DNA of 11,942 bases from a bacterium (GTDB taxonomy: Bacteria; Electryoneota; Electryoneia; Electryoneales; Electryoneaceae): positions 1 to 11,942 of the forward strand of contig JAZDLX010000017.1 of the NCBI GenBank assembly GCA_043801585.1. The letters run 5' to 3'. The notes beneath the pieces are model-generated. The model saw only the letters and a list, made by a program, of their open reading frames with translations. It made no database searches and was not told the DNA's origin. Below are positions 1-11,942 of this stretch, piece after piece. How positions within the stretch are numbered: the first letter of the stretch is position 1; each line of letters begins with the position of its first letter. The position numbers were made by a program, and so were the translations under genes.

Positions 1-18
1 GGTGACCCGGCCATAATT

Positions 19-149
19 TGTCATTCCCGCGCAGGCGGGAATCCAGCACGTAGGCCGGGTTCTCCGAACCCGGCGCGGTGTGGCGCGGAGGGTAGCCCGG
101 CTGCCCCGCTTGTCATGTCGCAGTAACTCGTTGACAGGCCAGCCGGGAA
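19..149. repeat. Cluster of REP-like palindromes downstream of the minus-strand operon
   Basis: TGTCATTCCCGCGCAGGCGGGAATCCAG at 19-46 (ATTCCC-N8-GGGAAT core); GTAG+GCCGGGTTC-tcc-GAACCCGGC at 50-74; GTAG+CCCGGCTG...CAGCCGGG at 92-147. Confidence 0.8.
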
Positions 150-158
150 CAGCATGAA

Positions 159-395
159 TCAAACCTTTGACCGGAACGCCTGTTCCAGCCGCGCCAGAGA
201 CGTCTGGATGTCCGCCAGCCTCGCCCGTATCTCCAGTCCGAACTGTTCCACTTCGCTGCGGTTTGCTTTCACATCATCGAGGTGGCGCAGGTCCGAACGA
301 AGCCGTCCGAATGCCAGCGAAACGGTAACAACCAGCGATCCAAAATAGATCAGGTCGCGAAGCGTGATCGCAAAGTGTGAGGGGTCGGCGATCAT
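159..395 (-). CDS. Small protein with one N-terminal TM helix and a C-terminal coiled coil (78 aa; lysis-accessory or holin-associated-like)
   Basis: 3' part of track ORF 159..1382. ATG at 395 with GAGGGAG SD, in an ATGA overlap with the stop of the upstream gene. Hydrophobic LIYFGSLVVTVSLAFG followed by heptad-like LADIQTSLARLEQAF. Confidence 0.75.
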   Translation of the reverse strand: MIADPSHFAITLRDLIYFGSLVVTVSLAFGRLRSDLRHLDDVKANRSEVEQFGLEIRARLADIQTSLARLEQAFRSKV

Positions 396-622
396 TTCGC
401 TCCCTCTGTGGCTGTCCCGCTGGTTTTGGCGGTTTGCGACGAGTCCGTTTGAGAGGCGGCTTTGGCGATGCCATCGCGAAGCAGCAGGGCCATCAGCGCT
501 GGAATCGCGATCTGCAACCCTTCTGTCAGCGTGCTTTGTCCGGTTGCCACCCGTTCCGTGGCGGCGATCAGAGCGGCAATCGCCGCCCAGAACGTTTTTG
601 TTTTCAGAAGTCGCTTCAGCAT
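392..622 (-). CDS. Putative holin-like small membrane protein (76 aa)
   Basis: AAGGAG SD. Basic N-terminus MLKRLLKTKTFW, two hydrophobic segments (FWAAIAALIAA; LQIAIPALMALLL), then LRDGIAK and a polar tail, the layout of two-TM phage holins. Function is inferred. Confidence 0.65.
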   Translation of the reverse strand: MLKRLLKTKTFWAAIAALIAATERVATGQSTLTEGLQIAIPALMALLLRDGIAKAASQTDSSQTAKTSGTATEGAK

Positions 623-649
623 GGAATTCTTCTCCTTTTCGAATGGGTG

Positions 650-1990
650 TCAGGGATGAGATGGAAGCCCGTCTGAACGGCTCCAGGCCGGTCGACCCCA
701 CGACGTCGGGATCTGAGTAGCGACGGGCTGGGCGCCGATGGTTGTCTTGTCCTCGGCGTAATGAGCGGCGGGCGAGATGGGCATCAGGCGAAAGTCGCTG
801 GAGGCCGGGGAGAGGAAGAGCGGGTTGCGCCGAAGCACATGGTCGGGAGCGGCAACTCCATCCAGATCCGCAGAGTTGTTCCAGAACAGAATTGACGAGA
901 GGAGGAGGCTGCCCAGAGTAGCCTGCGCGCCAGTGGTGCAGTGGGTAATGATCGAACGGGTTGTTGTCAGCGTGCCGCTGCCTCCGCAAAGGAGTCCGGC
1001 GGCGTGGTTCAGGCCGTGAATGGTGACACGGTCCGCTTCGCAGGTAGCTGAACCCAGGTATGCTACAGCCGTCGCACCCGGACCAGGCGTGCAGAAAATG
1101 AGCCGGGACAGAACAATGTTGGTCGTGTCTTCTGAAGTGCCGGTTATACCGTAATCGCTGAAGGTTGAACAGACACCACCTTCCACGATGACACTGTCGG
1201 CGTTGTTTGTAAAGATGCCGAAACCGTTGTCTTCCAGAACGCAATCGGTCAAACGGGTTGTTGATCCGGAAGAGACATACACTCCGCTTGGATTTCCGCT
1301 GGCCCTGCAAGACTCGAGAAGCATCATCGAGGTGGCGCCCGCGAAAAAACCTTTTCCAGCGGAGTTGTTCAGGCTCAGGCAAGCAGTGAGAGTCATCGCG
1401 GAGTTCGATGTCACTTTGAAGCCGTCCAACTGATTGTCATGGGCGGTGCAGCCAAATGCCCGAAGATCGCCGGACAGGTTGGAGTAGTATCCCCAGTCGC
1501 TTGTGCCGTCAGCGGAGCAGCCGTGAAGAGTGAGGATTGCGTGGTCACGGGAATAGAAACCCGCCCGGGCTGCAATGCCCCCTTCGTTGGCGTGAACGGC
1601 GCAGTTCCAGAAAGTGGCATCCGCCGTGGAGCCGTTTGCGTAGACTACGAAGCTGTTCGATATGCCGGAATTGATCAGGTGGAAACCGCGACAGGATCGC
1701 TTTATCGAAAGGCTGTCGGCTGGTTCAATCGCCCACACCTGGACGGTGCCGCTGATTGTCTGTCCGGTGGCCGATCCGATCAGGGTGTCGCCCGCGACGA
1801 CAAGCAGTGTATCGCTCCCTGCGGAGTTGCTCGCCGAGTCGATGGCGGCGGAGAAGGTGGCCAGGGCTTCGCTGTAACTCCGGCCGGAATTACCATTGTC
1901 GCCGTGCGTGCCGACAAACCAGAGTTCCGCCGCAGAGACAGAGGGACCGAATGCCAGGATCAAAACGAAAAGCTGTACGGTTCGTTTCAT
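650..1990 (-). CDS. Secreted right-handed parallel beta-helix (pectin lyase-like fold) protein, 446 aa
   Basis: Start re-called to ATG 1990 (GGAGGAGG SD, ATGA overlap with the upstream gene). Signal peptide MKRTVQLFVLILAFGPSVSA; cap motif WFVGTHGDNGNSGRS..ALATFSAAI..DTLLVVAG; repeated C-x-A-x-x-N...G-F/Y coils; C-terminal NPLF..DFRL..SPA. Confidence 0.85.
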   Translation of the reverse strand: MKRTVQLFVLILAFGPSVSAAELWFVGTHGDNGNSGRSYSEALATFSAAIDSASNSAGSDTLLVVAGDTLIGSATGQTISGTVQVWAIEPADSLSIKRSCRGFHLINSGISNSFVVYANGSTADATFWNCAVHANEGGIAARAGFYSRDHAILTLHGCSADGTSDWGYYSNLSGDLRAFGCTAHDNQLDGFKVTSNSAMTLTACLSLNNSAGKGFFAGATSMMLLESCRASGNPSGVYVSSGSTTRLTDCVLEDNGFGIFTNNADSVIVEGGVCSTFSDYGITGTSEDTTNIVLSRLIFCTPGPGATAVAYLGSATCEADRVTIHGLNHAAGLLCGGSGTLTTTRSIITHCTTGAQATLGSLLLSSILFWNNSADLDGVAAPDHVLRRNPLFLSPASSDFRLMPISPAAHYAEDKTTIGAQPVATQIPTSWGRPAWSRSDGLPSHP

Positions 1991-2310
1991 CGCCAAACCT
2001 CCTCCGCAATGGGGATTCCCCGAAAACGGCTCTCCCAGTCCTCGTACTGGACGACCACCGTGTCTCCCGTGACTGGATCGAGTCCGGCGCGAATGCGCAG
2101 GCTGTCGGGCCAACGGGCGGGGTAAGGCGAACGGAGATACCATGCCGGGAGAGTCAGCGACGAGGTGTCCACGTCTCCGATGGCAACGACCTGTGCGGGG
2201 GTCCAAAGCAACACGTCGGGCGCCTCGCGATCCTCGCTCGGATCGGCTGCGGTCAGAGATCCGCTAAAACACACGAACAACAGGAGCAGGTACGCCGTCA
2301 ACTTTATCAT
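1987..2310 (-). CDS. Hypothetical protein with signal peptide (107 aa)
   Basis: GGAGG SD, ATGA overlaps with both neighbours, N-terminus MIKLTAYLLLLFVCFSGSLTA|A. Confidence 0.75.
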   Translation of the reverse strand: MIKLTAYLLLLFVCFSGSLTAADPSEDREAPDVLLWTPAQVVAIGDVDTSSLTLPAWYLRSPYPARWPDSLRIRAGLDPVTGDTVVVQYEDWESRFRGIPIAEEVWR

Positions 2311-2849
2311 CGAACCCTCCAGAGATCCAGCCGCACGTTGGCGCTGTCAGCCGAGACAATGATGAATCGCAAGTAGCCTCCTCCGTACACTGGAATCGGC
2401 AGCGAAACTCCCGTCCCTGCGATTGTCAATGGATCGGTTGTGGGAATCAGGATCAGCGACTCATCCCACTGCTCGTAGATCACAGTCGTATCGTCGAGAG
2501 CCACCTGTGCGCTCACTGTGATTGAAGGATCGGCCGCATGCGCCACCGTAGCGGTGTCGACCTTCACGAAGAGGGTGAAACGGGTTGGGGCAAACACCCG
2601 TTCGGATGCCAGGTCCGCCGTGTGGGTTCCGAAACGGAGCCAGGAGGTGGTGTCGGCGGCAGCCTTGATAATGCCGTCGTAAAGAGTCGTCACACGGGCA
2701 ACACGTTCGCCCTGAAGGAGTCCGGCGGTGGACGAAAAACTCTGGGCGTTTGCGGACAGGGCGCAAAAATAGAGAAGGACAGCGGTCAGGATCGCGAAGC
2801 CAAGCTTCAGGGCGTGACGTTGACGTTGGGAAAGGGATGGGGAGATCAT
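2307..2849 (-). CDS. Hypothetical beta-sandwich protein with signal peptide (180 aa), possibly jelly-roll/capsid-cement-like
   Basis: Start re-called to ATG 2849 (GGAGG SD). Basic n-region, hydrophobic LGFAILTAVLLYFCAL, ANA|Q cleavage site; alternating beta-strand pattern ending GGGYLRFIIVS...VRLDLW. Confidence 0.75.
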   Translation of the reverse strand: MISPSLSQRQRHALKLGFAILTAVLLYFCALSANAQSFSSTAGLLQGERVARVTTLYDGIIKAAADTTSWLRFGTHTADLASERVFAPTRFTLFVKVDTATVAHAADPSITVSAQVALDDTTVIYEQWDESLILIPTTDPLTIAGTGVSLPIPVYGGGYLRFIIVSADSANVRLDLWRVR

Positions 2850-2902
2850 GGTTCCTCCGGAAAAGCGGTGGGTACAATGCAATGAATCGAAATGGAAGTG
2901 GG

Positions 2903-3664
2903 TCACTTTCCGTTCTTGTTGGAAATGCAGGTTTTCTGTGTGACCGGTTGAACGGAGCGGATTGGTGCGAGGAGGGCGGAATAGCGGATGCCACGGTGTT
3001 TGATCAGCAATTTTCGTTCGGTCCCGTCGTCGTCGATGCCGTTCTCTTTTTCGTCTTTCGCGGTGGCGTGGTCACAGGCGAGTTCGATGCCGGTGCCGGG
3101 GGCCGCGCCACGGTAGACCAGCGACCCTTCGGTGACCCGTTCGATCCCGTCGTACCAGAAAAAGCAGAGCTGGCCGTCATAAGTGCGCCCCGGCCAATGA
3201 GGACAGCCGCGCAGATCCTGCTCGCAGATGGAGCAGATGGGTGCGCGATAGACGAAGGCGATGGAGGCTTCGTTGTAGACACCCGCGTCGATCATCACCC
3301 TAAGGTCGTCCGCCTGAGAATGGACGCGCGGCCAGTAGAAACGGGGAACGATCCAGGAGATGTCGTCCCGTTTCTCGACATCGCCTCCGAAGAATCGTGC
3401 GATGCCAAGTGTGCGTCGGTCGTGCCCGATCAGCACGGGCGCACCCTGGACAAGCTCGAGCAGGCGGGGGAGGTTCTCGGTGCGGAATCGACCGTAGCGG
3501 CTGTCTATCTGGTCGCTGGCGAGACGGCAACGGCGAACGTAGATCTCGCTGGCGGAAAGAGGCAGCAACGGCGGATTGGCCAGTCCGTGAATAATTTTGA
3601 GATCCTGCTCACTGACCGTACACGGTTCACGCAGGAGGGTGCCCGAAAGATGCTGCGAAAGCAT
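2903..3664 (-). CDS. Prohead maturation protease (HK97-like fold) with Cys/His metal-binding insert
   Basis: AAAGGA SD. Motifs DQIDSRYGRF, VLIGHD (His), IDAGVYNEASIAF (Ser), EGSLVYRGA, plus CSIC-x6-CPHWPG-x-x-YDG-x-x-C. Lies directly after the portal. Confidence 0.8.
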   Translation of the reverse strand: MLSQHLSGTLLREPCTVSEQDLKIIHGLANPPLLPLSASEIYVRRCRLASDQIDSRYGRFRTENLPRLLELVQGAPVLIGHDRRTLGIARFFGGDVEKRDDISWIVPRFYWPRVHSQADDLRVMIDAGVYNEASIAFVYRAPICSICEQDLRGCPHWPGRTYDGQLCFFWYDGIERVTEGSLVYRGAAPGTGIELACDHATAKDEKENGIDDDGTERKLLIKHRGIRYSALLAPIRSVQPVTQKTCISNKNGK

Positions 3665-3694
3665 AGGGTGATTCCTTTCGTTGAAGGCGATGTC

Positions 3695-3812
3695 GGGTGG
3701 CCCGGTCGGCTTGATGGCCGGGTCTCAACTCTGAAGTATGGCCCGGCTGCCCCGCCAGCCAGGTTCACCACGGCTATGTGCCCTTTTCATTGCCGTCGGG
3801 TGGCTCGAGCAG
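3695..3812. repeat. Degenerate REP-like palindromes between portal and protease
   Basis: GGGTGGCCCGGTC...GGCCGGG at 3695-3722; GCCCGGCTGCCCCGC at 3741-3755 is identical to 95-109; CGGGTGGCTCGA near 3797-3808 matches the reverse complement of about 11685-11696. Confidence 0.6.
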
Positions 3813-3847
3813 TCAGTTGACTGATCGGGTTTCATTGTCGAGAGATG

Positions 3848-5119
3848 TCACTCCGGACGGAACGCTTTGTCATAACCGAGCTCACGGGCAGCCTGGTCGC
3901 GCGAGAGAATTCCGGCGGCGATCAGACGCTCCGCGCGCTCCATCTCCAGCATGCGGGCACGGTTGCGCTCGACAATGAACGGATCCTGGTTTGGTGCGAA
4001 CTTCCACGTGGGGATGGCGAGGTTGCCCGCGAGGCGAAGTTCAAGGCGGAGCAGCCATTCGGCGAGGTCGCTGCCGAGTTGCTGCAAAGCGTCCACGATC
4101 TGCATCAGCAGGTTGTACTGGGAATAGATCCAGTTCTTCGTCGTGCCGTGACTGCGGCCAAGTGTCCACGGAAAGAGTTTCAGGCCGGTGATCACATCCT
4201 CGATCACCTGCTCACGGTTCAGCTTCCAGATGCCTGCTTCGTCGCCGGTACCGCCGATCAGTTTCACCTCCACACCAGACCAGGTGAAAACGTTGTCATC
4301 CGGACCCAGGTCCTGGAACTGGCGCACGGTGGCGTCGAAATAGCTGTTGATCCGTTGCGTGTAACTCTCCTGGTCTTCGCCGGGAATACGTTCCGGGGGA
4401 GCGAGCTTGATCTGGAGACGGGGGGTGCCGGCGTTGTGGCTGCTGCGGGCCATGTCCTCGAGCATCTTCTGCTCGATTTCCACGACAAACGGGATGCTCG
4501 CCAGCGGGTCGATTCCCTCGATCTGGTGCAGGTCGCTGATCAGCGTTCGATGGAAAAACATCAACGGTGGCAGGGATTTCAGCGATCCATCCTCGAGCTC
4601 ATAGAACGGCTCGCTGCGGCCATCCGGATGTTTTCGCCAGCGGATCTGGAAGGGGTCCAGCGCTTCCACATGACTGATCCCCGTTCCATCCGGAAACGGG
4701 TGTGCGAGCAGGGCGACACGGCCGAGGGTGAACAGATCGAGGAAGAAGGATTCCACAAGGCGTTCAAGTCCACGGGTGTGGCCGTCACGTTTTGGATAGA
4801 CCCGCCTTTGCAACTGGTCGGCGAGGGAGTTGGCGCGCCGCACCTCCATTTCAGGTCCCCGGAAATCGAGACGCTGGGGTGTCGTACAGAGGTGTACCCA
4901 GGTCCAGATGCCGGCACTGACGATGGGGATGCGGTCCCGGAGAAACCGGTAGTATTCGGCGCGGTTCGCCCCCGTGTACCGGAACTCGCGTCCTGTCGCG
5001 AGTTGGGCGAGTGGACCGTCCGTGATGATCAGATCGTTGCGGGTAACGGAGGGCCGCCCCGCGAACACCTTGGGGTGGACGATCGGTTCGCGCTTGCGTG
5101 AAAAGAATCGTGCGAGCAT
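3848..5119 (-). CDS. Phage portal protein
   Basis: About 423 aa, directly downstream of terminase. YRFLRDRIPIVSAGI, DLFTLGRVAL, EGIDPLASIPFV, AGTPRLQI, QVITGLKLFPWTLG-like segment, C-terminal GILSRDQAARELGY. ATG 5119 preferred over GTG 5125 because GAGGTG forms its SD. Confidence 0.85.
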   Translation of the reverse strand: MLARFFSRKREPIVHPKVFAGRPSVTRNDLIITDGPLAQLATGREFRYTGANRAEYYRFLRDRIPIVSAGIWTWVHLCTTPQRLDFRGPEMEVRRANSLADQLQRRVYPKRDGHTRGLERLVESFFLDLFTLGRVALLAHPFPDGTGISHVEALDPFQIRWRKHPDGRSEPFYELEDGSLKSLPPLMFFHRTLISDLHQIEGIDPLASIPFVVEIEQKMLEDMARSSHNAGTPRLQIKLAPPERIPGEDQESYTQRINSYFDATVRQFQDLGPDDNVFTWSGVEVKLIGGTGDEAGIWKLNREQVIEDVITGLKLFPWTLGRSHGTTKNWIYSQYNLLMQIVDALQQLGSDLAEWLLRLELRLAGNLAIPTWKFAPNQDPFIVERNRARMLEMERAERLIAAGILSRDQAARELGYDKAFRPE

Positions 5120-5155
5120 GGGCACCTCTATCTGAGATTCGTAAACGAGCCTGGG

Positions 5156-6493
5156 CTAACGGTGGGTGCGGGAGTCGATCCCCGCGACACGGGGTGTTGC
5201 GGGGAGGGGGCTTCGTTGAAAACGTGGGAGGTTGATAACCAGATAGCGAAGAGCGTCCATCAGGTGGTCGTGTTCACCGTCCTTGACCGGACTCTCTCCG
5301 CTGGCATCCCAGGCATACGCCTGAAAGGCGGTGATCAATGGAGCGCAGCGCTTGTGGACACGCAGCTCAATCTCGCCGTTGGCGTCGCGAAGCAGGGCAC
5401 GCAACGCCTCGATGCCGGGTGAGACCGAAGAGGGTCTATGAACGGTCTTAATGCCGATCTGCTGAAACGCCTCCTCGGGGCTGATACCGAAATCGTTGTT
5501 CGCTGCTCCGGCGGGGTCCACGGCTGTGTGGGTGAAATCTCGTTCGTGTAAACCGTACCGTGCGTCCACATGGGCGATCCTGTCCAGAAGTAACGGAATC
5601 GGCAAGCGGTCCCCGACGAGACAATCGAACACGGTCAATTGTCCTTTGGCATCCTCTTCCGCCCAGATAACCGCCGGGCGACGGTAGCCGAAATCCACAC
5701 CACGGTAGAGACGCACTCCCCGCCGTGAACCGGGACGCGGGGTACGTTTGACCACGTGAAATTCCACCTCGAACTGATCGTAGACACGTCCCTCCGCTCC
5801 CTCGAAGGAGAGCTCCTGTTCGCGCCGCCAGCGCGCTTCGGAGAGGCCGGACCGGGCGGATTCCTGCCACTCGCAGCTTTTTTCGGGATTCTGCGAATAA
5901 TGCAGCCGGTACTTGAAGAAATGGGAGTTCTTGTCGTGCACGAGACGGGCGAAAACTCCGGCGGGACCGTTGGGCGTAGAGACTCCCAGAAATGAACCGC
6001 CGGAATCCACGGCGGGCTTCACCGCTGTCCACACCTCTTCGTCGTAGGGTGTAAACGCCATTTCGTCCCAGAAAACCGTGCGCGGGGAACGGCCCCGGAC
6101 GGCGTGGGGTGTCGTTGGCAGCGAAAGGATCTGTGTGTTCCGCTCCGGGAACACAATGCCGTCCGCCTTGACACGGATCTTTTCATCCATCAGGTCGGAC
6201 GGGAGGTGGTCATAGAGAAAACGGACTCGGTCAATCAGCTCGCGGGCGGACCGCTCCTCCTTGGAGAGGACAAGGTGCTGTCCGGGACCGCCGGTGATTG
6301 CACGATGCAGCAGCCAGGCACATCCGATCCAGGTCACCATCATCTGGCGGCTTTTGACAACGAGGACCCGGTCGCAGTTTTCCAGGGTTTTCGCCAGTTC
6401 GTAGATATAGCTCCAGTCTGGAATGGCGCGTGGGGTGTCGTGACCGGGGTCGTGAGTCTGGCAGTGCTGGAGAAAAGGCGGGAAATCAAGCAT
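5156..6493 (-). CDS. terL: Terminase large subunit
   Basis: Walker A-type VKSRQMMVT, Walker B VFWDEMAF, coupling motif STPNG, nuclease GVDFGY, DPAG, and KDGEHDHLMDALRY. All catalytic motifs look intact. Confidence 0.95.
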   Translation of the reverse strand: MLDFPPFLQHCQTHDPGHDTPRAIPDWSYIYELAKTLENCDRVLVVKSRQMMVTWIGCAWLLHRAITGGPGQHLVLSKEERSARELIDRVRFLYDHLPSDLMDEKIRVKADGIVFPERNTQILSLPTTPHAVRGRSPRTVFWDEMAFTPYDEEVWTAVKPAVDSGGSFLGVSTPNGPAGVFARLVHDKNSHFFKYRLHYSQNPEKSCEWQESARSGLSEARWRREQELSFEGAEGRVYDQFEVEFHVVKRTPRPGSRRGVRLYRGVDFGYRRPAVIWAEEDAKGQLTVFDCLVGDRLPIPLLLDRIAHVDARYGLHERDFTHTAVDPAGAANNDFGISPEEAFQQIGIKTVHRPSSVSPGIEALRALLRDANGEIELRVHKRCAPLITAFQAYAWDASGESPVKDGEHDHLMDALRYLVINLPRFQRSPLPATPRVAGIDSRTHR

Positions 6494-6647
6494 AGAGTGT
6501 CACAGCTTTCGTCTTATTGTACGTTTTGTCTCGAAAAGCATGAGGCTTTCCTTGTCGAAACCGACAGGTCCACTCGATGGGATTAAATCCCCGGGTTTCA
6601 ATCACTGCTTAGGTTACTTCCGCTCCTTCTGTCACCCTCACTCCTTT

Positions 6648-6724
6648 TGTCACCTCCGCGAAGGCGGGGGTCCAGTCAGTGAACGAGGTAAAACATCTGG
6701 ATTCCCGCCTTCGCGGGAATGACA
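6648..6724. repeat. Inverted pair of REP-like palindromes (GTCAYYCCCGCG..GCGGGAATCCA type)
   Basis: TGTCACCTCCGCGAAGGCGGGGGTCCAG (6648-6675) faces CTGGATTCCCGCCTTCGCGGGAATGACA (6697-6724); same family as 19-46. Confidence 0.85.
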
Positions 6725-6750
6725 ACTGGAGGAATATCGTCCGATCCCGG

Positions 6751-6814
6751 GGGTGGCCCGGGACTCTTGTCCGCCGAATCCCGAACCGTCGGGAGAAGGC
6801 GGATCAGTCCCTGG
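6751..6814. repeat. Nested REP-like hairpin
   Basis: GGGTGGCCC head, then nested stems GGGACT/AGTCCC, TCCGCC/GGCGGA and TCCCGA/TCGGGA. Confidence 0.6.
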
Positions 6815-6904
6815 TTTCATAAGGACTAATTGTTGCTCGAACGTGTGGTCCGACGGCCCCGCTTGCCATGTCGTAGCAACACGAAGACAGGACAGTCGTG
6901 TATC

Positions 6905-7753
6905 CTACCAGTTGTGGGGCGGTGTGTTCGACTGAAGCGATGGGGCGGCGGGAAGCGGCTGTTTCAGGAATTTGGACAGGGTGGTCGTCGCCCGTTCGCG
7001 GAAACGGATGGAAAGCTCCATGAATCGCCGGGCGCGATCGTCCGCGGAGGGATCGCCGACGGAACTGAGCGTGCGCAACGCGAGATCGTCACAGAGCTGG
7101 GAAAGCGTCAGTTCCGTCGCGCCGATCACCAGTCCTTCATCGGTGGAGCTGGCGCTGTAGCCGTCACGGAGACGGTCGACAATCTTCGCTTCCGCCTCGC
7201 TGATCGCCTGTCCGATCAAAGCGTCGGAGGTGCCCGCTGCGTTGGTGGAGTAGGAGACGAGGACACGCGCCGGGTCAGGGAGGTTGCCGGTGACAATTCG
7301 TGTCACAGTTCCGGCGGCGTAGTCCACCTCGAAGTCCACACCTTCGGCGAACAGATCCAGTGGGAGCAGGTACGCCTGCACGGTGTCGCCGGAGCCGATC
7401 GCTCCCGAGGCGATCCGTTTCACTTGAGCGGTCTCGTCGAGGACGGCGTAATCCACTCCCTCGATGAAACGTGACAGCGGCGGGTCGGAGGGAGCGATCA
7501 CGATGCTTCCGGGGGCGTTCGCGTCATATCCGGTGGCGTACCAGCTTTCACCGGAGAGGGTGAGCGGGACAGGTCCGGCAGGATCGGTGACATGCAGGGC
7601 GTAGACACGGACGCTGCCGGGGGAGAGGGTGCCGTGGGGAAGTTGGATCGCGCTGGCACCGCTGAGCACGAAGGGAAGAAACCGCACCTCGAGCGAATCC
7701 ACGCTGAGTGCCTGCAGGTGCAGCTTGATGGTTGTGGCATCGGTCCAGGCCAT
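6905..7753 (-). CDS. Head-tail adaptor (head completion)-like protein with large internal beta-rich insertion, 282 aa
   Basis: GAGGA SD. N-terminal MAWTDATTIKLHL and C-terminal DALIGQAISEAEAKIVDRLRDGY...ATELTLSQL resemble HK97 gp6 / Mu gp36-type adaptors. Downstream of the capsid gene. Confidence 0.65.
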   Translation of the reverse strand: MAWTDATTIKLHLQALSVDSLEVRFLPFVLSGASAIQLPHGTLSPGSVRVYALHVTDPAGPVPLTLSGESWYATGYDANAPGSIVIAPSDPPLSRFIEGVDYAVLDETAQVKRIASGAIGSGDTVQAYLLPLDLFAEGVDFEVDYAAGTVTRIVTGNLPDPARVLVSYSTNAAGTSDALIGQAISEAEAKIVDRLRDGYSASSTDEGLVIGATELTLSQLCDDLALRTLSSVGDPSADDRARRFMELSIRFRERATTTLSKFLKQPLPAAPSLQSNTPPHNW

Positions 7754-7754
7754 G

Positions 7755-8126
7755 TCAATTCCTCGAGAATAGCAGGCCGACGCTCGCCTGGAGAGTTGAG
7801 TTGGCGGGCACGCCGGACACCTGCACGTTGGTGAAGTTTCCGTTGCGGATCACAGAGACGGTGAACGTACCTCCCGAGTAGGTGGCGAAAAGGGTGATCC
7901 GGTCATTGGCGCTGACGGACAAGGTCCGGGTGTCGCTGCGCAGGGTGCTGCCATCCCATACGGAAAGACCGGTGATCGTTCCCGAAAAGGGCAGCGGGAC
8001 GCCATCCGCGCCAATCCCTCCGGCTCCCTTAAGGAAGGTGGATGAGGTGGCTACGGAAGCGGAGAAAGGAAGCAGCGATGGAGACATCCTCGCTTCGAGA
8101 AACGCTGCTGTCAGATTCAATGCCAT
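7755..8126 (-). CDS. Hypothetical beta-rich protein (123 aa), probable virion component
   Basis: GGAG SD; Ser/Thr/Gly-rich beta-strand pattern (GVPLPFSGTITGLSVW, ANDRITLFA); lies between capsid and adaptor. Confidence 0.75.
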   Translation of the reverse strand: MALNLTAAFLEARMSPSLLPFSASVATSSTFLKGAGGIGADGVPLPFSGTITGLSVWDGSTLRSDTRTLSVSANDRITLFATYSGGTFTVSVIRNGNFTNVQVSGVPANSTLQASVGLLFSRN

Positions 8127-8158
8127 GAGGTCTCCGGGTCAGGGGAAACCGGCGGGAG

Positions 8159-8206
8159 TGGGGCCTCGAGCGGAGGGGTCAGGGTGTGAGGATACTCGAG
8201 GCCCCA
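8159..8206 (-). terminator. 12-bp stem-loop right after the major capsid stop (transcript stabiliser or partial terminator)
   Basis: TGGGGCCTCGAG (8159-8170) / CTCGAGGCCCCA (8195-8206), 24-nt loop, no U-tract. Confidence 0.45.
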
Positions 8207-8218
8207 AGCCGGAAAACA

Positions 8219-9298
8219 TCAATAATCGCAGGCTTTTCTGGCATCGTCGACCATCACGGTGTAAACCGATTCCTTGGAAACGACGGCCGTTTCCAGCTTG
8301 CGTTCGATGACCTTGTCCGCTTCGATCATCAGCGGCTGGCTGACCGATTCACGCACGGCGAAACGGCTGTCCAGGGCGATCATCTCGGTGGCTGTCGCGG
8401 AGGGAACGGCGACGAGGCGGGCGTTCATCGGAAGCAGGTTCGCGTAGCTTCCAGTGGTTTGCATCAACTCCTTGGCGGCGAAAGCCTGTGCGTCCTGGAA
8501 CTGGTTCATGTTGAGGATGGTTTCGATGTCGCTCTTGTCCGCGAGGATGTGCGTCATCTTCGAGGGGACGTCGAAACTGGAGGCGAGGTGGACCAGGTCG
8601 GTGTAAGTGAAGCTGCCCCCCGTTCCGCTGAACACATTTGTTGCGGCGGGGCTGGTGCCGTCGCCGTTGTAGAGCACATCGTAGATCGCGTCGATTTCGT
8701 CATAAGCGAGCTGAGCTCCGATCCACCAGAGGAAAACGCGGAACTCTGCAAGCTTCTGGTTCTTGACGATTCGGTAAGAGAAATCGAACTGTCGTCCACG
8801 ATCGACAATCGCCGCTTCCTTGTCACGGTAGAGGAGTTGAACGCGGGGGTAGGCGCTGCCGCCGGAGGCACGCTTGCCTGCGGTCTTCTTTGCCTCGCTG
8901 GTCTGGATGTAGATGGGGCGGACAGTCGGTCCGACTTCGGGCACGGAGACGGCGATCAGGTCGGTGGGATCCTGGACCATCTTGTAACCCTTGCGGATTT
9001 CGCGAAGGATGTATTCCGGAAGCAGGATCAACGCGCCGCCGACAAAGAACTGTTCGACCGTGATCGAGCCGTTGCCTCCGGTGACAATTTCCTGTACCGC
9101 AAGTTGCCGCTCAAAGGCGTCCAGCTCGCTGCTGACTCGTCCCGTGGCATCTTGTGGCGAGGGATCCTGTTTTTCGAGCCAGTCGGTCAGGCTCATCCCC
9201 TGTTCCTGCGCTTCGTGGTAGAGCGAGAGGTTGCCCGAGCGGGAGTGCTCGATGATGGTGGCTTTCAGGGCCTGGGCCCGTGTGAGGTCAAGCGACAT
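8219..9298 (-). CDS. Major capsid protein (probable HK97 fold), 359 aa
   Basis: Start re-called to ATG 9298 (AAAGGAG SD). ELDAFERQL, VEQFF..ILLPEYILREIRKG, GRQFDFSYRIVK..L..F...IGAQLA, VLYNGDG, IEADKVIERKLE. Size and context (terminase, portal, protease, decoration) fit. Confidence 0.88.
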   Translation of the reverse strand: MSLDLTRAQALKATIIEHSRSGNLSLYHEAQEQGMSLTDWLEKQDPSPQDATGRVSSELDAFERQLAVQEIVTGGNGSITVEQFFVGGALILLPEYILREIRKGYKMVQDPTDLIAVSVPEVGPTVRPIYIQTSEAKKTAGKRASGGSAYPRVQLLYRDKEAAIVDRGRQFDFSYRIVKNQKLAEFRVFLWWIGAQLAYDEIDAIYDVLYNGDGTSPAATNVFSGTGGSFTYTDLVHLASSFDVPSKMTHILADKSDIETILNMNQFQDAQAFAAKELMQTTGSYANLLPMNARLVAVPSATATEMIALDSRFAVRESVSQPLMIEADKVIERKLETAVVSKESVYTVMVDDARKACDY

Positions 9299-9335
9299 GG
9301 TGGGTTCTCCTTTGGGGTGGGTGCATACCCGGGAG

Positions 9336-9471
9336 CAGGATGCACAGGATAACAAGGATAGACGGAATGTGTTTGAACGGACTCGGACGGAGAGGGGAGC
9401 GGGAACGACGTCCGTCATGTCGGTTCTGGATGAGTGCATTCTGCTGAAACAGGATGCACAGGGTTGACAGG
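9336..9471. repeat. Two copies of a CAGGA(T)-periodic repeat
   Basis: CAGGATGCACAGG at 9336-9348 and 9450-9462, each followed by a further degenerate ACA(A)GG unit. Confidence 0.6.
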
Positions 9472-9707
9472 TGCGGGGACCATGACTTGAGTGGTTCTTC
9501 GGTCAGGTCTTCGTTGCGCTAACGACCTGGCGCAACCGGGAATGTTTTGAACAGGGGTGTCCGGAGAAAGGTGCTGGAAAAGCGTTCCGGCGGGCTGATT
9601 TGTCTGGTAGCGCCTTGGAGGTTTGGCGCCACGATGGGCGTATGGTTCCGAACTTGCTGCGCGAGTGGCGCAGCCACTCCAAGCCGCCTTTGGCGCCCGA
9701 CTCCGGG

Positions 9708-10142
9708 CTACCCGAGCCAGACGTCGCATGTGGAATTGGTGGAGTCCACGGCGATCACCTGGCCGCGCATCAGGTGTCCGCCGGCGGCGATGTCCGTGTC
9801 CGCGGAGGCCTGGCGGACCTTTCCGGTGCCGGCGACTTCGACCATCTGATTGACCTGTGGCGCCGTAGCTTCGTAAGCGAAACGGGCGACGCCGCGGGCC
9901 TGCACTGCGCAGGAGGCGGGACGGGTTGTTCCGGGCACGAGGTCTGTCGAAACCCAGACCAGTTTGCCGAACAATTTATCACCCGCCGACCCCTTAGAAA
10001 CCTCGTTGTTTCCGGAAATCCTGCAGGCGGTGGTGTTGTTGTCGATGTCCTCCTGCGTGAAGCCGCTGGAGGAGTTGATGGTCATCGAGAGGAAGGGCCC
10101 TCCCCCGATGCCTTCGTTGTCAATGACGTACGGTGTGCTCAT
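9708..10142 (-). CDS. Putative head decoration / capsid cement protein (144 aa)
   Basis: GGAG SD. Gly/Val-rich pattern ISGNNEVSKGSAGDKLFGKL, CAVQARG, VEVAGTGKV, GQVIAVDSTNSTCDVWLG, typical of the small protein encoded just before major capsid genes. Confidence 0.75.
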   Translation of the reverse strand: MSTPYVIDNEGIGGGPFLSMTINSSSGFTQEDIDNNTTACRISGNNEVSKGSAGDKLFGKLVWVSTDLVPGTTRPASCAVQARGVARFAYEATAPQVNQMVEVAGTGKVRQASADTDIAAGGHLMRGQVIAVDSTNSTCDVWLG

Positions 10143-10190
10143 GGAATCGTTCTCCGCATGGTTGTTGAAAAGGATGTGTGACAGAGGGAG

Positions 10191-10571
10191 TCATCGTCCG
10201 CTGGCGAACTTGTCGCTCAAGTCACGCTGTGCTGGAGTGCCGGTGGCGGGCGGGGTTGGAGCGGTGGGGTCGCTGTCGATTAAACGGTGGCGGAGGGCGT
10301 GGTCGAGCTCCGCTTCCAATTCCTCGAGTTGAGCGAGGTTGCCCTCACGTGCGTGCTGAACGTCATGCTCGGGACGTTCGAGCAGCTCGCATCGGGCGAG
10401 CAGGCGTTGACGCATCCGCTCGACGAGATGGTCTCGTTCACGGATGGCGTCAGGCCGGTTGGCCAGTTCGTCCGCGGCGTAGCGGAGAAGAAACGCGAGT
10501 TCGTCGAGGTTGACCTCCTCGCCGGCCTCGCACATATCCGCGGCAGCGTGAAGTTTGGGTTGCAGGTCCAT
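10191..10571 (-). CDS. Helical charged protein (126 aa), putative capsid scaffold
   Basis: AAAGGA SD. E/R/L-rich coiled coil, Pro/Thr linker, short terminal DLSDKFASGR; sits directly before decoration and capsid genes. CDS well supported, function inferred. Confidence 0.6.
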   Translation of the reverse strand: MDLQPKLHAAADMCEAGEEVNLDELAFLLRYAADELANRPDAIRERDHLVERMRQRLLARCELLERPEHDVQHAREGNLAQLEELEAELDHALRHRLIDSDPTAPTPPATGTPAQRDLSDKFASGR

Positions 10572-10881
10572 CCTGGTTCCTTTCCGGTTAGATGAGGCGG
10601 AATACCTCGGTGGCTTCGGTTGACAGGGAAGAGCTCGGGACGGACGGACGTGCGGGGTTCCGTCCGTCCCAAGCCGGACCGTCAGCGCATGCTTCCAGAA
10701 TCGGCCAGCCCGAACGGACGGTCCGGTGCCTTTCAGAAAGCATGAACTTCCCGTTGAATAGCAGGGGTGCGTGCGCGTGGTGATGGCAGGCCGGGTGACG
10801 GAAGGGATCGTGGCCGGAGCGGGGCGGCGGGGAAGGTGAGATCCCGGGAGAAATGCGCACGCGGCAGGTTGTCAACGCTAA

Positions 10882-10897
10882 CTGAACAAATGTTCAG
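10882..10897. promoter_or_regulatory. Operator palindrome with GAAC-N4-GTTC core (LexA/Cheo-box-like)
   Basis: CTGAACA-AA-TGTTCAG perfect 7-bp inverted repeat, 11 nt downstream of the predicted -10 on the minus strand. Confidence 0.6.
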
Positions 10898-10908
10898 AAA
10901 GCGAAACC

Positions 10909-10937
10909 AAGATAGCTTGTTATCGATATGTTGTCAA
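10909..10937 (-). promoter_or_regulatory. Sigma70-type promoter for the capsid operon
   Basis: Minus strand TTGACA (10937-10932), 17-nt spacer, TATCTT (10914-10909), within the only markedly AT-rich stretch of the window. Confidence 0.7.
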
Positions 10938-11034
10938 TACCCAACACAACACAGGCTCCATCGATGGCTCTGTTTGATTCTATTTTTAGTATTAATAAGG
11001 AATAATCAAGTTCTTAAGGAGAGGCATCTTTTTC

Positions 11035-11074
11035 AGCGTAAATGTTGCGATAACGCAACGCAATACGCTATCTT
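11035..11074 (+). promoter_or_regulatory. Promoter of the XRE gene overlapped by an inverted-repeat operator
   Basis: TTGCGA (11045-11050)-N18-TATCTT (11069-11074); GTTGCG-ATAA-CGCAAC (11044-11059) flanked by AGCGTA (11035-11040) / TACGCT (11064-11069). Confidence 0.55.
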
Positions 11075-11098
11075 CCGGTGAACAGTGGAGTTCCGGCT

Positions 11099-11590
11099 AT
11101 GGAGAGAATCCTTGAAGAGAGTCAACTCGGGCGCAACCTGCGTGCGCTGCGGATCCGTGCGGGGTTGACCCAAAAGCAGCTTGCGGACCTCGCCCGTCTT
11201 GACCGTGCGACCATCAGTCTGATCGAGAACGGCCGCGAGAGTCCCCGCGCCCATACCGTGGTTACGCTTGCGGAGGTGCTCGGTGTGCGCCCTGCCGACC
11301 TCTGGCGTGAACGGTCGATCGGGTTGGGACCGAGCGGTGCGATGGCGACCGGACGGGTTCATTCAACGGTCGGCGAGGGAACGGAGACGGTTTATGAACC
11401 GCTCGAACAGCACGTGTTGCATCCGGGGTTGGAGGGGCTGCTGAGCGACGACAAAACCCGGACCCTGATGCAGATCACCGACGAGGAGGAGGCGGTATTG
11501 CGCTCGATCCGGACACGTCTGAACGCTCCACTCGACAAGGAATTTTTCATTGACGTGCTGCTCGCCTACCGCCGCAGCCACAGCAGGTGA
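11099..11590 (+). CDS. XRE/Cro-CI family helix-turn-helix transcriptional regulator (163 aa)
   Basis: LGRNLRALRIRAGLTQKQLADLARLDRATISLIENGRESP..HTVVTLAEVLGV is a canonical XRE HTH. ATG 11099 has a GGAG SD and is preferred to GTG 11078. Confidence 0.92.
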   Translation: MERILEESQLGRNLRALRIRAGLTQKQLADLARLDRATISLIENGRESPRAHTVVTLAEVLGVRPADLWRERSIGLGPSGAMATGRVHSTVGEGTETVYEPLEQHVLHPGLEGLLSDDKTRTLMQITDEEEAVLRSIRTRLNAPLDKEFFIDVLLAYRRSHSR

Positions 11591-11753
11591 CACGATGCAA
11601 TATCAAGTAGGCCGAGTTCACCGACTTGTACACCCTTTGCGGAACATGGCTTCTAACTGACAAGAAACCCGACTTGCGAGCAAGTCGAGCCACCCGTCGC
11701 AAAAGTCATAGCAGGTGAATTTGTGGTGGGGTGGGAAAAGAGGGACAGCGAGC

Positions 11754-11822
11754 GTAGCCCGGCATCACCGCATGCCGGGAAACATGGAATTGTATTCCCG
11801 GGACACGGTGGTCCCGGGCTAC
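11754..11822. repeat. Inverted pair of GTAG-type REP elements (REPIN-like)
   Basis: GTAGCCCGGCATCACCGCATGCCGGGAA (11754-11781) and the reverse complement of GTAGCCCGGGACCACCGTGTCCCGGGAA (11795-11822). Confidence 0.8.
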
Positions 11823-11891
11823 ATGCTGACGAATTAGAATAAACCCTGTTTGCACGCTGCGCTAAGCAAACAGGGGCACATACCCTTCCTC

Positions 11892-11927
11892 GTCATCCTG
11901 AATGAAGCGTAGCGAAGTGAAGGATCT
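11892..11927. repeat. GTCATCCTGA...GAAGGATCT type REP-like element
   Basis: GTCATCCTGAATGAAGCGTAGCGAAGTGAAGGATCT; shares the GTCAT head and GGAT-type tail with the elements at 19-46 and 6648-6724. Confidence 0.6.
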
Positions 11928-11942
11928 CTCGACGTGACGTTC

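Follow-up and report, generated by a model that had tools for sequence, protein, structure and literature searches.

A candidate gene transfer agent lineage without a recognised tail in the phylum Electryoneota

Our subject is a cluster of phage-type head genes on a stretch of bacterial DNA that we call the window: the 11,942 nucleotides of contig JAZDLX010000017.1 (our contig C209; assembly GCA_043801585.1), from a member of the Electryoneaceae in the phylum Electryoneota. We think it probable that the cluster represents a new, damage-inducible lineage of gene transfer agent (GTA)-like elements, one that has no long tail and was domesticated before the phylum radiated. A reading of the sequence alone (the sequence-only reading) had proposed a maintained host function. 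That the cluster is domesticated and serves such a function is well supported by its near-universal single-copy distribution, a phylogeny that follows the host's and purifying selection. GTAs whose genes have been identified are few, and most of them come from Alphaproteobacteria. This would be a candidate lineage kept in about nine in ten genomes of one phylum and, in a sister form, in 145 of 151 sampled from another, with a capsid that evolves no faster than RpoB. Should such a particle manage without a tail, it would break the rule that a GTA is a tailed particle.

Inheritance of the cluster across the phylum

Of the 79 genomes of the phylum that we searched, 70 matched the capsid, 68 the large terminase (TerL) and 66 the portal, against 77 for rpoB; in the 51 best genomes the corresponding counts are 47, 46, 46 and 51. 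The genes keep a common order (scaffold, decoration, capsid, jelly roll, adaptor, TerL, portal, protease), the conserved synteny for which the sequence-only reading had advised a search. Host genes have been inserted within the cluster in several lineages (the portal lies 38 kb from terL in genome G019), and in the family we label f5 the block is rearranged and dispersed, with capsid, jelly-roll and decoration genes apart from terL and portal. Cluster genes are essentially single-copy, second matches being split pieces or weak hits except in one family-f3 genome, G044.

For the phylogeny, RpoB was taken from the 58 genomes with near-full-length matches, and G005 and G031 were dropped for their partial capsids, leaving 56. 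The capsid and RpoB trees have 27 of 53 splits in common (at most 3 in 1000 label shuffles), six of the seven multi-member families are monophyletic in both, and the tree lengths are 8.5 for the capsid and 9.3 for RpoB. A concatenate of five genes from 40 genomes has 26 of 37 splits in common with RpoB. The patchy, phage-like pattern that the sequence-only reading had named as the alternative is thus not what counts and trees give. The ratio of nonsynonymous to synonymous substitution (dN/dS), measured against a same-genus genome, is as low as had been anticipated: it runs from 0.058 to 0.239 in all ten genes tested of the window's 14, with the capsid at 0.058, the regulator XRE at 0.15 and a left-hand gene, g199, at 0.24; three host efflux genes, taken as controls, gave 0.058–0.11. 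Among the cluster's genes, the capsid shows the strongest conservation and the best codon adaptation. Capsid and decoration genes both have low dS and stand at the 96th and 95th percentile of codon adaptation among 1642 long open reading frames, a background that includes false ones.

Might this be an ordinary or decaying prophage severed by the assembly? The window is an entire contig of a 3.28-Mb genome in 225 contigs (92% complete), so the flanks of the cluster in its own genome cannot be seen, and this is what speaks for the idea. It is effectively refuted by the single-copy presence in about nine of ten genomes, the host-congruent tree and the low dN/dS, and by the long contigs of relatives, which carry host genes on both flanks and inside the cluster. 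Tail and integrase modules had been suggested as things that might continue just outside; among 58 flanking or inserted proteins from seven long-contig relatives there was no integrase or tail module, and one 49-residue partial tail-fibre hit.

Three smaller observations belong here. The exceptional genome G044 carries on contig C242 an extra TerL–portal pair, f1-like and 56–63% identical to the window's, that may be bin contamination or a transfer. The single-contig genome G005 has a break inside the cluster, after the capsid and before the adaptor, and at that point is not fully closed. Among named records, the closest capsids are those of Ca. Electryonea clarkiae, AABM5.125.24, LCP-89 and 'Calditrichaeota'.

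Head, packaging and predicted damage control

The minus strand holds thirteen genes, between 10571 and 159, and a single XRE gene diverges from them. All 14 open reading frames translate with a terminal stop only, which bears out the earlier statement that frameshifts and internal stops are not evident, and the terL, portal, protease, capsid, decoration, scaffold-like and adaptor-like genes are present in one orientation as it had said, with its promoter and divergent XRE gene on their right. The control region and the head genes are these:

11099..11590, plus strand: divergent XRE regulator (family match; dN/dS as above)
10909..10937, minus strand: sigma70-type promoter TTGACA-17-TATCTT (full pattern in 7 of 9 family-f1 intergenic regions)
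10883..10896, no strand: palindrome TGAACA-N2-TGTTCA after the promoter, a predicted LexA (SOS) box (motif match)
10191..10571, minus strand: helical scaffold-like protein (function suggested by position)
9708..10142, minus strand: decoration/cement-position protein (phrog_4588, E 6e-7)
8219..9298, minus strand: major capsid protein, 359 aa (phrog_3922, E 5e-50; PF25209)
7755..8126, minus strand: jelly-roll protein, 123 aa (model pLDDT 86; best Z 5.9)
6905..7753, minus strand: head-tail adaptor of the gp6/gp15/T4 gp13 fold with two inserted beta domains, 282 aa (fold model)
5156..6493, minus strand: TerL (phrog_2, E 2e-30)
3848..5119, minus strand: portal (phrog_3753, E 1e-28)
2903..3664, minus strand: prohead protease with a Zn-ribbon insertion (position, motifs, profile homology)

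The capsid profile found no relative among PDB sequences. The scaffold-like gene is homologous to genes at the same position in a Zixibacteria cluster (HH 90%) and in a virus, G234 (E 4e-5), both described below; that it is the split-off C terminus of a protease–scaffold fusion in Oscillospirales was rejected (only E 0.037). The decoration gene is homologous to the gene preceding the capsid in the Oscillospirales elements. The jelly-roll protein is most likely a second decoration protein or a spike base, to judge from its model; it has no fold match above Z 5.9 and might instead be a stopper or tube. The adaptor model (pLDDT 84) is a helical bundle with two beta-domain insertions, and its top eight matches among 48,161 chains (VIA) are all phage neck or tail entries (Z 8.3–9.5), T4 gp13 being the best (Z 9.5, rmsd 3.4, 102 aligned), which is why we call the 282-aa gene a head-tail adaptor. 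Foldseek with the same model returned only a phi812 baseplate chain, through the beta domains, and otherwise noise. The protease is assigned because of its position, its invariant His/Ser motifs and its profile homology to the Oscillospirales protease-position gene (HH 99.3%); His, Ser, CxxC and CxH are invariant in 29 of 29 homologues, and its only PHROG match is phrog_16951, of unknown function. In TerL, Walker B, the coupling motif and the nuclease aspartates are invariant (Walker B and nuclease residues in 42 of 42 homologues), and the P-loop reads KSRQM[ML][VA][TS]W (first M in 40 of 42), against SRQLGKT in T4.

The promoter region is conserved beyond the window, with TTGACAACA present in all nine family-f1 regions between XRE and scaffold. 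The palindrome that follows it occurs three times in the genome as a perfect site and eight times within one mismatch; a subsample shuffled twice gives, when scaled up, 0 and 5. Perfect copies stand at the cluster promoter, upstream of the dinB (IMS) operon, where 16 bases are identical, and at a NUDIX gene, and a one-mismatch site stands 27 bases upstream of imuB-dnaE2. The lexA promoter carries the palindrome with one or two mismatches between its -35 and -10 in 3 of 3 f1 genomes examined, and those promoters have TTGA(C/T)-type -35 and TA(T/C)CTT -10 hexamers. In Gram-positive bacteria the LexA motif is GAAC-N4-GTTC, and the SOS core includes lexA, dinB and imuA-imuB-dnaE2 (PMC3323433). Upstream of the cluster, a box within one mismatch was found in 8 of 10 f1 and 3 of 3 f9 genomes scored, and in none of four f2, one f7 and one f8; 12 genomes had too little upstream DNA to score, and two-mismatch boxes were left uncounted because chance matches are likely in 2.6 kb of sequence. 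Direct SOS control of the cluster is therefore well predicted for family f1, not for the whole phylum. With a LexA box on the operon, a simple inducer would allow a direct test of whether GTAs serve DNA repair. An HExxH IrrE/ImmA-like peptidase gene adjoins XRE in four related loci and lies on another contig here; the two may form a second switch. As a by-product, the sites in this genome (G000; C78:159237, C105:11641, C113:64869 and the lexA promoter on C179) outline a Gram-positive-type GAAC-N4-GTTC SOS regulon of the dinB operon, imuB-dnaE2, the NUDIX gene and lexA, not recA.

Put together, the mechanism we propose would begin with LexA repressing the promoter at 10937-10909 through the box at 10883-10896, as the motifs predict, and with RecA-triggered LexA cleavage turning the cluster on. 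Judging from what such protein families do, scaffold, portal and capsid would build a prohead, the protease would mature it, decoration proteins would stabilise it and the adaptor would cap the portal. TerL, working without a sequence-specific small terminase (TerS), would fill the head with arbitrary headfuls of host chromosome. The last steps are more speculative: a holin-like protein, plus an amidase in one family, might release the particle; exported beta-helix or LamG proteins might act as spikes; and recipients might take up the DNA through a ComEC-type system and use it as template for repair. All 5 genomes searched for ComEC have it, but so do 10 of 14 controls.

Relatives, missing parts and rival explanations

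Genomes labelled Zixibacteria hold a closer sister cluster (36 loci, L336-L371), and its capsid occurs almost always once per genome. Portal, protease, scaffold, decoration, capsid and adaptor are common to the two clusters. The Zixibacteria order is portal, a TerL of a different family, protease, scaffold, decoration, capsid, a 474-aa propeller, adaptor, a truncated TerS and exported proteins. That TerL has a canonical GNRWGKS motif, and appears to have been replaced rather than lost. The propeller was considered as a nozzle and rejected, having no family or structure match and only E 0.012 to a virus propeller; in the 79 genomes of the window's phylum it found no full-length match and 10 weak partial hits. 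In a capsid tree (125 of 138 sequences kept), the window and Zixibacteria clusters stand apart from an Oscillospirales clade with support 0.997. The Oscillospirales element is widespread (at least 502 matches; L057-L136, L257-L335). Of 80 loci, 15 are too short downstream to score; 19 of the other 65 have a contractile tail and 46 have none, so the element would seem to have lost its tail in parallel. Its hosts can be cultured, and it is a candidate for the origin of the gut GTA-like packaging whose genes PMC12946183 did not find. In passing, MT835508.1 (L056), labelled 'bacteriophage sp.', is a piece of Clostridia chromosome with a ribosomal protein operon and the head-only module.

Annotated cultured phages offer no close capsid; among 50,697 records there were 5 matches, at 30-32%, and one of these, the Clostridia piece MT835508.1, led to the Oscillospirales element. 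Three IMG/VR records have the same head and adaptor (IMGVR_UViG_3300014309_000087, _3300002231_000781 and _3300032053_014309). One of them, the virus record G234 (L398-L399), is 31,492 bp long and has a 123-bp terminal repeat, DnaB and an initiator, with a BNR propeller following the adaptor; as CheckV puts it at 21% complete, the case for its completeness is the terminal repeat. Tape measure, tube and sheath were not recognised among its proteins scanned. With the same head and no recognisable long tail in G234, the poverty in tail genes would be partly ancestral. We infer that the domesticated cluster descends from short-tailed or tail-poor viruses and later lost replication, DNA specificity and fibres; the free relatives would show what domestication cost, namely replication genes, the TerS DNA-binding domain and fibres. 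The G234 prohead protease is fused to an ATP-dependent DNA ligase domain. Two further genomes (L380, L381) have scaffold, decoration and capsid followed by membrane or exported proteins, possibly a third domesticated lineage. No viral loci were found in P0155 and P0187.

The earlier finding that no tail, TerS, endolysin, integrase or replication gene is recognisable held up in PHROG and family scans of the 14 window proteins. Baseplate J, tape measure and sheath families are patchy in the phylum (14, 11 and 6 of 79 genomes), lie away from the cluster where relatives' contigs allow comparison, and are unmatched in this genome. PF05521 and PF10145, both detected in a Caulobacter control, were not found in this genome, nor were PF04984 and PF04865, both detected in a Bacillus subtilis control. 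Profiles of Oscillospirales neck and tail genes gave nothing here except LysM-type hits of one LysM-bearing profile. The T7-type nozzle model PF25675 was not found in five genomes, but it matched no control either. A divergent short-tail locus may lie elsewhere in the genome. As to TerS, a short DUF5681-like gene precedes terL in 16 of 60 genomes tabulated, none of them in f1; in the window that slot (6616..6904) is filled with repeats. The short c31 gene was tried as a TerS and is weak (DUF5681 below cut-off, E 0.06). At its N terminus the virus TerS carries a CxxC domain; the Zixibacteria gene is a match to this TerS (E 4e-10), but the Zixibacteria examples inspected do not have that domain. 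The RcGTA TerS also has no DNA-binding domain (PMC6854486).

Several things weigh against a damage-inducible GTA-like lineage. The case is made from gene sequences, and the particle, its packaged DNA and its transfer are predictions. Searches of the cluster and of five genomes turned up neither stopper nor P22-type nozzle families, which leaves portal sealing and DNA delivery unexplained, and a second locus could have escaped an assembly that is 92% complete and split over 225 contigs. This genome yielded no TerS-like gene, whereas TerS is essential in RcGTA (PMC6854486), and no amidase or endolysin. The TerL Walker A has neither the Gly nor the internal Lys of T4 gp17 in 42 of 42 homologues, so ATPase activity is not assured. 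The spike-like genes have signal-peptide-like N termini, odd for virion proteins. Each tree comparison holds one strongly supported conflict with RpoB. On the side of control, four of the eight palindrome sites precede unrelated genes, recA has no box within one mismatch upstream in 5 of 5 genomes, and the box precedes the cluster in only 1 of 13 f6 genomes and in 0 of 11 f3, 0 of 4 f5 and 0 of 19 Zixibacteria portal regions.

The missing sealing or delivery part, TerS and endolysin, the odd P-loop and the hydrophobic spike N termini keep three rivals alive. In the first, SOS induction yields shells full of host DNA that are never delivered, an outcome like that of PBSX, and serve as a protected store of DNA, as matrix material or as decoys. 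We regard this as unlikely, though well worth keeping in mind: tail, nozzle and stopper were not found, and direct SOS control is predicted as for PBSX. PBSX, however, is kept for its killing tail, the very part missing here, and the phylum-wide retention of TerL, portal and adaptor is better explained if the DNA is used. In the second, tailless heads carrying host DNA are released and bind the tails of co-infecting phages, as do the capsids made by cf-PICIs, phage-inducible chromosomal islands of the capsid-forming kind (bioRxiv 10.1101/2025.02.11.637232). Besides this precedent, the retention of an adaptor that ranks with the most variable core genes (28-57% identity outside the genus) would fit such piracy. 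We nevertheless think it improbable, as cf-PICIs encode a connector alongside their adaptor, with integrase and replication genes, and no connector was found here; the related virus G234, moreover, appears to work without a long tail.

The third rival makes a DNA-free shell or compartment the selected product, with TerL turned nuclease or scaffold without motor activity. It draws on the exceptional conservation and codon adaptation of the capsid, the deviant Walker A, the absence of TerS in f1 and the split of the capsid–jelly roll–decoration block from terL and portal in f5. We give it little chance, because TerL keeps Walker B, the coupling motif and the N-terminal Lys/Arg of the P-loop invariant, and the Zixibacteria TerL is canonical. 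Active terminases with Lys-shifted Walker A variants were reportedly described by Mitchell and Rao in 2004.

To return to the GTA-like reading, it has a bolder form, possible but in our estimate doubtful: that these are ancient, truly tailless, SOS-induced gene-transfer capsids from tail-poor HK97-type viruses, near-core in two phyla, which pass host DNA to the competence machinery of recipients to serve as template for repair, host-exported spikes having replaced the tail.

Known systems, left-hand genes and repeats

The definition of GTA viriforms in PMC9662315 has six elements, and the cluster shows three: proteins derived from caudoviricetes (by PHROG, Pfam, fold and free viral relatives), full endogenisation, often at several loci (on relatives' contigs, the window's own flanks not being visible), and vertical inheritance congruent with the host phylogeny. 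The other three elements are mostly random host DNA in the particle, a head too small for the element's own genes, and delivery to other cells; the truncated or absent TerS lends the first indirect support, and for the last no delivery device was identified. The cluster falls outside the RcGTA, FpGTA, PBSX and cf-PICI groups. With RcGTA and CcGTA (Rhodogtaviriformidae) of Alphaproteobacteria it has in common an endogenous, vertically inherited TerL, portal, protease, capsid and adaptor and, in sister lineages, a TerS without DNA-binding domain; CcGTA has been tied to survival of DNA damage, with a repair-template benefit to neighbours (PMC9632790). It differs from RcGTA in its phrog_3922/PF25209 capsid, gene order and unrelated host phylum, in having no recognised stopper, tube, tape measure or baseplate, and in a predicted direct LexA box in place of GafA/RogA control. 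FpGTA of Faecalibacterium has a head-and-packaging operon of about 10 kb conserved across its host group, and 40-nm particles with no visible tail that package 8.4-8.9 kb (PMC12946183). The window resembles it in that conserved operon. FpGTA also has a second operon for baseplate, fibres and lysis. That the window is an FpGTA was rejected on annotation only: N4-gp56 capsid and adjoining Prp protease there, phrog_3922/PF25209 capsid and His/Ser protease here.

The Oscillospirales element is likewise chromosomal, with homologous capsid (33%), portal, TerL (HH 98.9%), protease (HH 99.3%) and decoration genes, but it keeps a full TerS (PF03592) and two neck-position genes after the adaptor, has contractile tails at some loci and forms a separate capsid clade. 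The free IMG/VR viruses have the scaffold–decoration–capsid block, portal (31-33%) and protease, an adaptor with a beta-domain insertion (E 2e-64 to 1e-73 in two, 1e-30 in the third) and likewise no tape measure, tube or sheath recognised. They differ in replication genes (DnaB helicase and initiator in IMGVR_UViG_3300014309_000087), a full TerS, a Zixibacteria-type TerL, large fibre or spike proteins and a BNR propeller after the adaptor. Like the window, cf-PICIs have their own capsid, portal, terminase and adaptor and no tail, and their tailless capsids gain infectivity by binding phage tails (bioRxiv 10.1101/2025.02.11.637232). They are mobile and self-packaging, with integrase, replication genes and connector, whereas the cluster is fixed and host-congruent and none of those three turned up in the window or beside the cluster in relatives. 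The DNA inside PBSX is not injected (PMC12946183).

PBSX of Bacillus subtilis is a domesticated, DNA-damage-induced, XRE-regulated element that packages random host DNA and has a contractile killing tail. The window is like it in domestication and its XRE gene, damage induction here being predicted only, and unlike it in that sheath and baseplate were not found in this genome. We found no description of the cluster in literature on the phylum, subscription journals lying outside the coverage, and the main text of the Electryoneota genome-description paper does not mention phage, capsid, terminase, virus or transfer agent.

The earlier description of a head-only cluster stands for the head genes, but the five left-hand genes (159-2849), each with a hydrophobic N-terminal segment by hydropathy, are not head genes. 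What it took for mutational debris does lie between genes, as it said, but consists of host repeats resembling repetitive extragenic palindromes (REPs); its REP cluster at the left end was correct. The remaining features are:

2307..2849, minus strand: conserved beta-sandwich protein g199 (look-alikes mostly viral; dN/dS as above)
1987..2310, minus strand: 107-aa protein with signal-peptide-like N terminus (hydropathy)
650..1990, minus strand: right-handed beta-helix protein, 446 aa, with signal-peptide-like N terminus (PF13229, E 1e-16)
392..622, minus strand: holin-like membrane protein, 76 aa (suggested by size and hydropathy)
159..395, minus strand: small membrane-anchored coiled-coil protein (hydrophobic segment; family-f1 cluster end in 7 loci)
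11655..11942, no strand: host repeats at contig end (72 hits on 43 contigs)
9497..9707, no strand: intergenic stretch with host repeats (hits on 4 other contigs)
6616..6904, no strand: host repeats between adaptor and terL (hits on 24 other contigs)
3689..3844, no strand: host repeats between portal and protease (hits on 25 other contigs)
1..151, no strand: host REP-like repeats at contig end (42 blastn hits on 22 other contigs)

The g199 N terminus is hydrophobic in 13 of 13 homologues, by hydropathy only. The beta-helix protein, in a variable slot, looks spike- or depolymerase-like; its match to a virus spike spans 39 residues only. The 76-aa protein has no significant match in PHROG and family scans, and the coiled-coil protein is possibly a lysis accessory. 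Clusters of family f3 finish with exported LamG proteins, holin-like genes and an Amidase_2 endolysin (L038, L039, L045, L050, L032, L054), the amidase standing there in 8 of 12 genomes. The portal–protease gap, filled with host repeats in the window, is only 20 bp in the same-genus genome. Several REP-like hairpin families (window 18-46, 6641-6731 and 11754-11822) are common to dozens of contigs and coincide with both ends of this one.

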